Below, piece after piece: positions 18,722 through 63,469 of a DNA stretch of 64,000 nucleotides. The first letter of the stretch is position 1. Every line of letters begins with the position of its first letter. The stretch is from Botryllus schlosseri (lineage: Eukaryota), in the NCBI GenBank assembly GCA_051294905.1, contig CM119371.1:36642001-36706000 (forward strand), in the 5' to 3' direction. The position numbers and the translations under genes are program-made. Below the pieces are notes generated by a model. The model saw nothing but the letters and a program-made list of their open reading frames with translations, was not told the origin of the DNA and made no database searches.

Positions 18722-21700
18722 TCATAAATGTTTGGCGAACACAGAGATAGTATCATGCGGTGCCGGCATATCCGCAAATATTTTCTTTCCCGTGAGTTGG
18801 TCCACGTATTCGTCACATCGTATGCTGGTTATCCCTGTGTATCCTTGTTTGACAGCCATCCGATGAACGTAGCAACTAGCCGTTACAAATAGAATTGCTC
18901 TGTAACCCCTTCTTCGGGTACTGCTTTCTATCCTGCAGATAAAAAATGCCTGATTATGTAACTTGTATTTTACCGGGAGACATTTCCAGTATGAAAGGCA
19001 TTTTTCGAAATAGTAAGTACAATTCACGGTGTTAGTTACAATGTATGAATGTTCAAAACACCCTATTCGAATAGCAATAAAGGATACCATATTTTAATAA
19101 GCTATCCTATAAGATATCATAACACTGAGTTCGTAATTGATAATCCCAGTGTTACTTTATGAAGTAGGCCCTAGGCCTACACAGCAGAAAGGAGCACAGC
19201 GCCCTCTCTCTCTCTCTCTCTCTCTCTCTTAGTTTTTTACAATAGTTGTTCTCAACAGTCAGTCCACGGCGAATTTTGCGCCGGTCCGGTATATTAAAAT
19301 TTTAATAATTAATTAATTTTAAGATGCAAGAACTTGAAGGCTTGCCCGTTGGTAAAGTAAATTAAACATATAATTTTAAACTCATTCAGAACTTCGTGAG
19401 GTGGGATTAGGCTCGAAAACATGCTCGATTTGACTTTACGTTCAAGTTGTCTCCGGTGACGACATGCGACTGACTTACTAAGTTCGAGTTGACTCGCTAA
19501 ACCGCGCAGTTTGCACGATCATTCGTTTACGATTCATTAATTTTGTGAATAGCCGGGTATCGCTGTTGTCAGGTGTTTTCGTGCAGCGCACAACACTTGT
19601 GGTACATGTGTTAGTAGTGGGATATGAGCAAGATAGCTCGACAAGGTGCTTGGTCCTACCCCAAAACGCTTATTCTCTGGATATTGTCGCGGAGATTGGC
19701 ATTATTCGAGTTAGCGTGATCAGGTAATCCACGCCATTCGGCGCGAAAGTATGGTTATCTGGGCAAGGCAATTTTATCTCGACTCAGCACTCAGCAGACA
19801 CAGCCGGAAAATCACATGAATACCATAGCATGAACATATAACATTACAAACAAAACCCTCGAAATGTCACTCTCTAGTATCATAGTTGCGGGAAAACGGC
19901 TTTAAACTTTACAATTTGGGTTGATTTCAATTTTTTAAGGTCTACCGGTCCGCCAAATATCGTTTAAAATATTACCAGTCCGTTGAGTGAAAAAGGTTGA
20001 CACCACATCACATTTTTAGCCGCACTGTTTAGTACATGTTTATCTGCGAACGACACTCTTGACAACAGCATTAGCATATAACTGATAGGGCCTACCAGTG
20101 TTGGGATCAAGTCACTACCTTCGAGTCACGAGTCATCTCGAGTCATTGCACATTTTGACTCGAGTCAAGTCAAGTCAATCGATTTTCGAAGGTGACTCGA
20201 GTCAAGTCAAGTCACTCGTTTTTTGGAGGTGACTCGAGTCAAGTCGAGTCAAGTCGAGTCAAGTCGAGTCAAGTCAAGTCAAGTCACGAGTCAAGTCACA
20301 ATTCAAGTCAAATCTAATTTTCGAAGTATGAGTGATGAAGCAAAGTCATTACATTTTTCTAGCTGTGTGAATGACAGATTAATTGGTCATTTATATTGAA
20401 TCAAATCACGAATATAAAGTTAAATATACACGCAAAAAGACGCTGCATCACTCTCGCACACGTAGAGCTGCTAATAAAATACGTGAGTAACTGTACAGTA
20501 GTGTACACTGTTGCACAGGTACGTGCTACAGTCAATTATTATCAGCCAAAATATAGAACCGAATACAAAGCCTCGAGAAGTTGAAACAAATTGATGTGGC
20601 ACAATAGTTTACAGCAGAGGTCTCAAACTCAAATGTGCTCGCGGGTCAGTTTGCCAGTTTTGACGACGCCGCAGGCCGCAGCATTTATAGGGGTATTCTA
20701 TGTCTTTCCAAGTAGGCTCTATTTTGCGGGTATGAATTGTCCTATTGAAAGTGAGCCGATCCAGCAGACTGACAGTAAACACACATCGTCAAAATGTGGT
20801 TTACTCTTGTATCAATTTAGACCTGGCACGAAAATAATCATCACATTTATAACTATTTGAATAGAATTGTTGTTGTACTTGATATATATTAATTATAAGA
20901 TATAGACGCCATATGGGCGGACAAATGTATGATGCCATCATAAAAGAAATCGGGCTATTATTTTTCAGCTACTATGAATATTTTGAAGTTAACAGATTGA
21001 TAATAGAGACTGATCGGATATCAAAACATTTTTAAGTTGAACATTGTAATTCCAATCCTGGATTCGGGTATACTACTGATAAATAGGCTATTAATCTCAT
21101 GGCCTACGCTATTAATCTGATGGTCAGATATCTTCAAATATAGGGGCAGAAAAAATATAAATATAATATAAATATATTATTGAATGTGTCCTATGATTGA
21201 AATGTCGGGACGCCGAACGGCCCATTGCTGTTACATCGTTGGAGCGTACCACTACGGTACTCGGTACCTTTAAGTGGCCTTAATAACATGGTTTAGCGAC
21301 CAAAGAAGTAACTAACAGATTGCCAATGGTTGCCATAACAACTTGCTTCGTTAGCGACCTTCTGATCTATTACTATTCCCCTGATACGCGATTAGTTTGT
21401 TGCGTCCATGGTTCTAAGCTAACAAATTCACGGCATTCCGAGTCACTCCAAGTCCACTCGAATTTTGCCATCGAGTTAGCCCGAGTCTGAGTAATTCGAG
21501 GTCGCGTCTAAGTCCAACTCTGAAATTTCAGTCACGAATCGTCCAAGGGTCAGATTTTGTCATCATGAATTGGAAATATGGCGAAATAATGAATCTTCCA
21601 CTGCATGATATAGCGTTTGCAATTGATGTGATGGTAAAGTTTGATGAATAGTTTAAGGCTTTCGGAGCAATATAAGAAGGAATTTTAACTTTATAACCTG

Positions 21701-63469: not shown

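Follow-up and report, generated by a model that had tools for sequence, protein, structure and literature searches.

Background

How does a 40-kb block of DNA that carries gag, pol and env-like genes, and neither long terminal repeats (LTRs) nor a retroviral integrase, come to lie between exact target-site duplications (TSDs) in a chromosome of the tunicate Botryllus schlosseri? The question is raised by a stretch of 64,000 nt without any N (assembly GCA_051294905.1, contig CM119371.1, positions 36,642,001 to 36,706,000), here called the window, to which positions refer unless another contig is named. A first-pass annotation had recognised the block as a viral insertion nested within two miniature inverted-repeat transposable elements (MITEs A and B). 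We propose, at a probability of about 0.72, that what lies integrated here is an enveloped reverse-transcribing element from a tunicate, in which a transposase of the Merlin/IS1595 type replaces the integrase, and which would multiply through a cycle resembling that of pararetroviruses. To our knowledge, known reverse-transcribing elements, where they integrate at all, do so by means of a tyrosine recombinase, an endonuclease or an rve integrase; if our proposal is true, a cut-and-paste transposase acting on a circular product of reverse transcription would be a further solution to integration.

Results

A mobile unit with Merlin-type ends

Searches of the same genome with the two end regions of the insert gave 40 scored matches each, from which 30 left and 30 right loci were fetched, and GG ends are common to all of them. 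When left and right ends on one contig, on the same strand and at most 80 kb apart were taken as pairs, 25 of the 30 left ends had a partner among the fetched right ends (two rows share one right end), and 17 of these 25 copies are 37-41 kb long. Perfect 8-bp TSDs flank 21 of the paired copies; one further copy has 7 of 8 bases matching, two have no TSD, and the window copy alone has a duplication of 9 bp. The earlier claim that the 40 kb had entered a single site by a TSD-generating reaction is thereby borne out, the 25 copies having the same pair of ends and nearly all of them their own TSD. A delimitation with a 7-bp TSD and GGG...CCC ends was tried and rejected, because other copies fix the ends.

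Most simply, the reaction would be that of the element's own transposase. Two are encoded, Tp1 and Tp2, both with the D, D, E residues intact, and the open frame of Tp1 (327 codons) extends beyond its first ATG. Merlin elements have 5'-GG ends and TSDs of 8-9 bp (PMC8101967, in excerpt). It is very probable, in our view, that the insert is a mobile unit brought in by its own Merlin-type enzyme. End-to-end and self comparison revealed no LTR pair in the window copy, the former giving only chance matches of 14-25 nt; internal matches to the terminal 20-mers have 4-5 mismatches each, with no internal complementary region found, and the assembly holds no head-to-tail dimer. One copy, at G000:C5:10284372-10305047 (L014, L015, L065, L066), has its left 14 kb and the adjoining flank duplicated in tandem.

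The nest of insertions

The three TSD pairs of the first-pass annotation were all found in place, each adjoining an element end and each exact, in keeping with their description as unmutated: GGGCCTAC at 20088 and 62682 bounds MITE A, GTTTACAG at 20607 and 62151 (with a third occurrence at 4871) bounds MITE B, and the 9-bp CCTGAAATG at 21697 and 62053 bounds the 40-kb element. From base composition, the random expectation for a given TSD match at a fixed position is 4e-6 to 2e-5. Both MITEs are non-autonomous and presumably hAT-like (CAG ends, 8-bp TSD). MITE A has perfect ends of 11 bp, and within the window there is no intact full-length copy with which its rejoining could be compared.

MITE B had been said to rejoin seamlessly when set against the intact copy at 15053-16180. 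This is true of the break itself: with the halves aligned separately to that copy, as the annotation had suggested, 898 of 990 aligned bases are identical on the left (90.7%) and 91 of 98 on the right (92.9%), the halves are collinear with it across the break, and where the interrupted copy duplicated CCTGAAATG the intact one has CCTGAAAAG, with one base different. It is not true elsewhere, since the left half differs by a 92-bp extra segment and by indels of 15 and 18 bp, and the right terminal repeat of the interrupted copy is 10 bases shorter. Similarly, the proposed order of events (MITE A, then MITE B, then the 40-kb element) stands for these three copies and not for their families. The 40-kb element itself contains a MITE B relic (44443-45175) and pieces of MITE A. 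The region that holds them aligns collinearly (94%) with the copy on C6, so that MITE B had entered the element lineage before the present insertion; the MITE families and the element family overlap in time. A read joint from 483 to 8529 of L210, the internally deleted copy described below, was considered as a candidate for the empty allele and discarded, its flanks being a high-copy repeat. Just outside the nest, a repeat with a 203-aa open reading frame (ORF) and no Pfam match occurs at 62858-63469, 1838-2306 and 11173-11804 (about 70% identical).

A primer-binding site that changes among host tRNAs

Ahead of gag, the element carries TGG followed by 16 nt complementary to the 3' end of the host tRNA-Ile(AAT). 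Exact matches to this 16-mer number 20 genome-wide, against none for its reversed control. Seven matches are at known element positions, the window's included; the 13 others comprise 10 tRNA-Ile(AAT) genes called by ARAGORN, whose 3' ends the 16-mer complements, and three further element copies. The complement of CCA is present in full only in the element copies among these matches; in tRNA, CCA is added after transcription (PMC3315495, in excerpt). All 15 copies examined from family A, which has the gene order of the window copy, keep the tRNA-Ile site, about 325 nt before gag. Nine more distant copies of subfamily B or C type have at the equivalent place a site for tRNA-Thr(AGT) (seven copies) or tRNA-Thr(CGT) (two). 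For the AGT match, ARAGORN called tRNAs at 3 of 17 loci scanned, the remaining 14 being element copies, and for the CGT match a tRNA gene at 1 of 7. Without tRNA-primed reverse transcription it would be difficult to account for a site that switches among three host tRNAs while the CCA complement is retained, and we are strongly confident that the element replicates through reverse transcriptase (RT).

The site lies 7 kb from the element's 3' end, so that RNA of the linear insert would template gag and pol only; the other 33 kb would need transcription across joined ends.

Further sites of this kind were seen beyond the copies counted above. In a distant subfamily with an env 36% identical (L230, G000:C1:20346562), the leader described below is followed after about 215 nt by a fourth primer-site-like sequence, starting TGGAGGCACC. 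At least 12 additional copies (L181, L185, L187, L190, L192, L193, L203-L206, L208, L209) have the leader, a tRNA-Thr site and gag (49-57% identical). Among the 13 loci outside known element positions, six (L146, L148, L155-L158) are dispersed pairs of tRNA-Ile(AAT) and tRNA-Phe(GAA) genes a few bases apart.

The host's spliced leader in the DNA of the element

At 242-293 nt upstream of the primer site, the element contains a copy of the host's 25-nt trans-spliced leader, the 'Chordata 1' leader of Table 1 in PMC3795323 (in excerpt). Four of 46 primer-site loci had too little upstream DNA; in the other 42, the 24-nt leader core is exact in 36, has one mismatch in three and a one-base loss in one, and is absent from two. 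Trans-splicing within chordates is, as far as we know, confined to tunicates, and the leader would on that ground place the host among them. The flanks of the leader are variable on both sides: GT follows in 16 of the 42 loci with no conserved donor, some copies repeat the last 4-11 bases of the leader, and some change their upstream sequence exactly at it. The want of a conserved donor disfavours a captured leader gene, which should have kept one. To judge from these sequences, the leader copy would rather resemble a strand-transfer point that is renewed in each cycle from trans-spliced RNA.

Sequencing runs under three organism labels contain at least 35% of the sequence words. Reads from four of the runs (X24, X22, X7 and X1; organism A) were mapped to L210, an internally deleted 8-kb copy with both ends, gag, pol and the primer site. 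In the RNA run X24, 5285 reads have what we take to be a template-switch adapter directly behind the first base of the leader (L210:7640), and the same reads continue into unrelated sequences beyond L210:7607-7611; many different mRNAs therefore begin with the leader stretch. Near gag-pol, transcription is indicated solely by run X22, in which some 400 sense reads pile up on the upstream side of the leader copy, at a distance of 70-190 nt. No RNA record is listed for the stretch.

Immediately ahead of the leader (28912-28986) and once more ahead of an accessory ORF (30293-30366) stands a 75-bp repeat (84%), a candidate for a promoter used twice. Genome-wide, the leader core has 236 exact matches. 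Some belong to another repeated element with the leader in its DNA (L219, L220, L221, L223), where pairs about 1.8-1.9 kb apart with near-identical flanks are possibly LTR-like ends. At L227 (G000:C2:4618762) the leader is followed by GTAAG, a canonical splice donor, which makes this locus a candidate for the true spliced-leader RNA gene.

Permuted gene order

All large ORFs of the element are on the minus strand (Table 1), and from the 5' end their order is Tp1, env-like gene, mucin-like gene, 10 kb poor in ORFs, 15 accessory ORFs, gag and pol. Three copies of subfamily C, with a pol about 74% identical, have instead the order accessory genes, gag, pol, Tp1, env, mucin-like gene, 3' end. Their right ends show the same motif as the pol-side end of family A, and each of the three has its own matching 8-bp TSDs (ACTTGTTG on C3, CAAAGTTC on C12, AAACTATT on C1). 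Judged by their sequence, each of these copies is one unit that keeps the cyclic gene order of family A and has its ends placed elsewhere. Tp1 of subfamily C stands at the position of the retroviral integrase, and in two of the three copies its frame directly follows the pol TAG, in frame. A second, more distant group suggests the same permutation from its coordinates (C1:8.89 Mb versus C8:10.24 Mb and C2:26.5 Mb). The permutation supports a circular map and does not prove it, as a block swap in linear DNA could give the same.

Selection, mosaicism and relatives

Pairwise to the window copy, the ratio of nonsynonymous to synonymous substitution (dN/dS) of pol (residues 430-1151) is 0.04-0.14 in all 32 comparisons. 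That of gag is 0.10-0.28 in 16 of 20, with four saturated, and that of Tp1 is 0.07-0.18 in 27 of 29 family-A copies, the two nearest giving 0.37 and 0.50; Tp1 of six distant copies and env in all three comparisons are saturated. Thus pol, gag and the transposase are under purifying selection. Copies with perfect TSDs differ by dS of up to 0.4, so that most divergence arose before insertion. The nearest relative of a copy changes from gene to gene, a mosaic such as recombination would give; for example, the copy at C3:31.1 Mb has a dS of 0.016 in Tp1 versus 0.35 in pol.

Four database proteins are 37-45% identical to the region from RT to the end of Pol, the next identities being about 25%, and further ones came from a larger search. 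Of the 56 rows in a quick tree, 13 form a clade with the element RT (SH-aLRT 99) that falls within Gypsy-like RTs and has integrase-bearing neighbours; Pfam finds an integrase in the closest row outside the clade that has full domains, and the single caulimovirus row falls outside the clade on a long branch. The integrase is absent from all seven full-length or near-full-length clade members scanned (the window copy, P0001, P0002-4, P0120 and P0122), and a Tpt1-like domain is present in P0001-P0004 and P0120. In P0120 this domain is followed by an exonuclease/endonuclease/phosphatase domain, which may have come there by chance joining or may be a further module for integration or repair. A scan of viral contigs with the pol alignment confirmed none of 11 candidates, and one of metagenomes confirmed three of 230, namely two true relatives (L231, L232) and a 23% match. 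With less than 5 kb each, and gag-pol alone, both relatives are too short for a transposase to be visible, and no link to a transposase is shown outside this genome. Relatives of the polymerase do occur in other marine and eukaryotic assemblies.

Further gene content

Pol has no integrase domain, with neither an rve nor an H2C2 match in Pfam; its Tpt1/KptA-like domain is matched with E 6.8e-11, and its stop lies 263 bp from the element terminus. By sequence, its best match among solved structures is 8r0s, 'Enzymatic polyprotein' (E 7e-18), presumably caulimoviral. The zinc knuckle of the gag-like protein scores slightly below the Pfam cut-off (20.5 versus 20.8 bits), and the heptamer in the gag/pol overlap is of a type that we take to be a -1 frameshift motif. 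The env-like protein has a basic cleavage motif at about residue 480, then a hydrophobic stretch, and a C-terminal membrane segment; a search for homologs gave one match, a fragment. Its neighbour, the mucin-like membrane protein, is a candidate attachment protein. In-frame tandem duplications occur in pol (24514-24773, 135 bp, differing in copy number between copies) and in the mucin-like gene (56204-56375, 84 bp).

Among the accessory genes, a check of the IAP for intron loss by protein search gave only other single-exon IAPs. Strong splice acceptors ahead of the accessory ATGs, looked for by eye at 20 ORFs, are clear for only a few and are not claimed. Elsewhere in the genome, many single-exon IAP ORFs (380-410 codons, 51-60% identical to the element's) stand in inverted or tandem pairs a few kb apart (e.g. 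G000 C5:23993453-23997278, C10:5954668-5957800, C2:35122814-35126274, C11:7383864-7389581), and these probably represent another repeated element with IAP in its arms.

Table 1. Coordinates of the nested elements and of the features of the 40-kb element in the window
Position	Strand	Feature	Basis
15053..16180	+	Intact MITE B with its own TSD GTTTAGAT, comparison copy	
20088..20095	+	TSD of MITE A, left (GGGCCTAC)	Exact match
20096..20606	.	MITE A, left part; CAG ends	End and TSD comparison
20607..20614	+	TSD of MITE B, left (GTTTACAG)	Exact match
20615..21705	+	MITE B, left part, closing with left 9-bp TSD 21697-21705	90.7% to 15053-16081
21706..62052	-	Retrovirus-like element, 40,347 bp, without LTRs	
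21706..21728	+	Terminal inverted repeat, element 3' end, begins GGAAC	17/23 bases as at the other end
21969..25424	-	pol: protease motif, RT (YIDD), RNase H, C-terminal Tpt1/KptA-like domain	Pfam, PDB sequence matches, motifs
25517..28333	-	gag-like ORF, 938 aa	
25532..25538	-	A-AAA-AAC heptamer in gag/pol overlap, candidate -1 frameshift site	
28641..28659	-	Primer-binding site: TGG and 16 nt complementary to host tRNA-Ile(AAT) 3' end	
28885..28909	-	Host trans-spliced leader (25 nt), DNA copy; the replication RNA is proposed to start here	
29799..44050	-	15 co-oriented single-exon accessory ORFs	
31008..31463	-	Ubiquitin-conjugating enzyme, accessory ORF	Pfam
33252..34946	-	IAP, accessory ORF	Pfam
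36099..36977	-	Tp2, second IS1595/Merlin-type transposase, D, D, E intact	Pfam E 2.3e-17, motifs
37715..38755	-	Leucine-rich-repeat protein, accessory ORF	Pfam
44051..54597	.	ORF-poor region with old MITE relics	43.6-53.8 kb 94% to C6 copy
54598..58158	-	1186-aa membrane protein, Thr/Ser-rich stalk (mucin-like), weak paralogue of env	
58168..60684	-	env-like protein, 838 aa	
60814..61653	-	Tp1, IS1595/Merlin-type transposase, D, D, E intact	Pfam E 1.1e-10, motifs
61899..61920	-	Subterminal copy of end motif, ~130 nt inside 5' end; present too in subfamilies B, C	
62030..62052	-	Terminal inverted repeat, element 5' end, begins GGTAC	
62053..62150	+	Right 9-bp TSD (62053-62061) and MITE B right part, shortened terminal repeat	
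62151..62158	+	TSD of MITE B, right	
62159..62681	.	MITE A, right part	
62682..62689	+	TSD of MITE A, right	

Discussion

Proposed replication cycle

The cycle that we propose would begin with excision of the element by its transposase and joining of its ends into a circle, or with the arrival of an unintegrated circle by infection. Circles are formed by an IS1595 element of the IS1016 group, as shown by inverse PCR (PMC12561309, in excerpt). A promoter upstream of 28909 would drive transcription round the circle, and the host leader would be trans-spliced onto the 5' end of the RNA, which would thus be terminally redundant and comprise leader, primer site, gag, pol, end junction, transposase, env, accessory genes and the leader region again. 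Packaged by Gag together with Pol and a tRNA primer, this RNA would be copied by RT over about 270 nt to the cap, including the leader; the product would jump to the 3' repeat, and the completed DNA would be circular or become so. As RT would copy through the trans-spliced leader, a fresh leader would be written into the DNA in every generation. The transposase would then cut the end junction and insert the linear form with a TSD of 8-9 bp, and env and the mucin-like protein may carry particles between cells or animals. We consider the circular template probable, and infectious particles, suggested by the coding sequences, somewhat likelier than their absence. That these elements represent new temperate animal pararetroviruses, phage-like in entering and leaving chromosomes by means of Merlin, enveloped, about 40 kb long, with a circular map, a host leader as the 5' end of their RNA, exchanges of the tRNA used and a Tpt1-like Pol, we would put at even odds.

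Several observations weigh against the proposed cycle. The pattern of an end-to-end junction has no match in the assembly, and no end-to-end read joint is among the 15 displayed of 240 from the four runs on L210. Neither of the two raw RNA runs, of which 6% and 3% were read, covered gag and pol to a depth above 3 (range 0-3), and no full-length RNA was observed in them. Two of the 42 primer-site loci are without leader, and the in-frame link of pol and Tp1 is broken in one of the three subfamily C copies. No polypurine tract was identified, with no systematic search made for it. With the window copy as one partner in every dN/dS pair, the values are not independent, and either Tp1 or Tp2 may be the acting enzyme. 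As to the envelope, Atlas matches of the env-like protein to class I fusion proteins (0.89-0.91, low recognition) are a weak pointer, and a single-sequence fold of its residues 329-838 had low confidence (pLDDT 46.5) and was not used for fold search.

Alternative explanations

The missing circle junction is what an RT element without a circle would predict, its DNA being assembled by template switching from two RNAs (one from leader to 3' end, one from 5' end to leader) or from a tandem or concatemeric template, then trimmed and inserted by the transposase. The approximately 400 sense reads in X22 upstream of the leader would fit a separately polyadenylated upstream RNA, and they also fit a terminally redundant RNA, whose 3' end they would then mark. 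This explanation agrees as well as ours does with the primer site, the leader and the data on selection; the window copy, however, has no split direct repeats or internal complementary copies of its ends to guide the jumps, and the assembly has no head-to-tail dimer. We consider it unlikely. Less probable still is a giant Merlin transposon that moves only as DNA by cut and paste, with the retroviral genes as passive cargo or as a cassette helping host or particle. Ends, TSDs and transposases are indeed of Merlin type, old MITE relics are carried along, the length is very great for an RT template and there is little gag-pol RNA. Passive cargo should drift, yet pol has a dN/dS of 0.04-0.14, and primer switching among three tRNAs with the CCA complement, together with the leader fixed in DNA, bears the marks of repeated reverse transcription.

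Alternatively, an ordinary LTR retrovirus or Gypsy element could have inserted into a large Merlin element and the composite been amplified, as the position of the RT within Gypsy-like sequences and the integrase of the nearest outside row with full domains might suggest. This is largely refuted already and very improbable: there is neither an LTR pair nor an internal unit bounded by TSDs, 263 bp separate the end of pol from the terminus, family A has gag-pol and env at its two extremes where subfamily C has them adjacent, and all seven scanned members of the RT clade are without integrase. We attach scarcely any weight to misassembly or chance 8-9-mers, for, although the flanks are repeats, three exact pairs lie at element ends, 17 copies of the same size class have distinct TSDs, and the window has no N.

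Comparison with known systems

A Merlin-integrated RT element is not described in the literature searched, although subscription journals, Repbase reports or supplements could hold such a description, and the life cycle of a Merlin-integrated enveloped RT element is apparently undescribed. With Merlin/IS1595 elements the insert shares 5'-GG ends, imperfect terminal repeats, TSDs of 8-9 bp and a DDE_Tnp_IS1595 domain with D, D, E. In contrast to them it is 40 kb long, with about 20 genes, gag-pol-env, a primer site, the leader and two transposases; a single transposase gene and movement as DNA only are characteristic of Merlin, and here two transposases accompany a gag-pol-env set under selection. 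The term 'reverse transcriptase' is absent from the main text of the Merlin paper (PMC8101967). Teratorn, a fusion of piggyBac with an alloherpesvirus and a DNA virus of 180 kb with a DNA polymerase, is likewise a virus made intragenomic by a cut-and-paste transposase, and its excision as a circle has been proposed, not shown (PMC10175614, in excerpt). Our element differs in being reverse-transcribing and of Merlin type, without piggyBac transposase or herpesvirus core genes by Pfam; Merlin is not mentioned in the Teratorn review (PMC10175614). DIRS1-like elements have a tyrosine recombinase and no TSD, and restore their ends via internal complementary regions; the likeness lies in a Gypsy-related RT, a replaced integrase, inverted ends and a circular intermediate, which is a feature of DIRS1 and only proposed for the present element (PMC3266345, in excerpt). 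The latter differs by its DDE transposase, TSDs, tRNA primer site and env, and by the lack of any internal complementary region found. Pfam gave no match to a tyrosine recombinase among the 20 element ORFs scanned.

Caulimoviridae, which infect plants, have no integrase, a tRNA primer site within a circular genome and terminally redundant RNA, and they are not known to encode an integrating enzyme or an envelope. The element resembles them in the missing integrase and the internal primer site, a circular genome and redundant RNA being only implied by primer site and permutation; it differs by its transposase, TSDs and env-like gene, and its RT is not grouped with the one caulimovirus row of our quick tree, which has a long branch. 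Metaviridae (Ty3/Gypsy) with env and Retroviridae combine gag, a frameshifted pol with protease, RT and RNase H, a primer site before gag, and env. The element shares with them gag (by sequence), protease-RT-RNase H in this order behind a candidate frameshift site, the tRNA primer site before gag and an env-like gene, and in subfamily C the transposase occupies the position of the integrase; in contrast, it has no LTRs and no rve integrase, a Tpt1-like end of Pol, a TSD of 8-9 bp and five times the usual length. In its mode of working the element would be comparable to a pararetrovirus equipped with a transposase, or to a DIRS element with env and a DDE enzyme, and it departs in a defining feature from Merlin, Metaviridae/Retroviridae, Caulimoviridae, DIRS and Teratorn alike.

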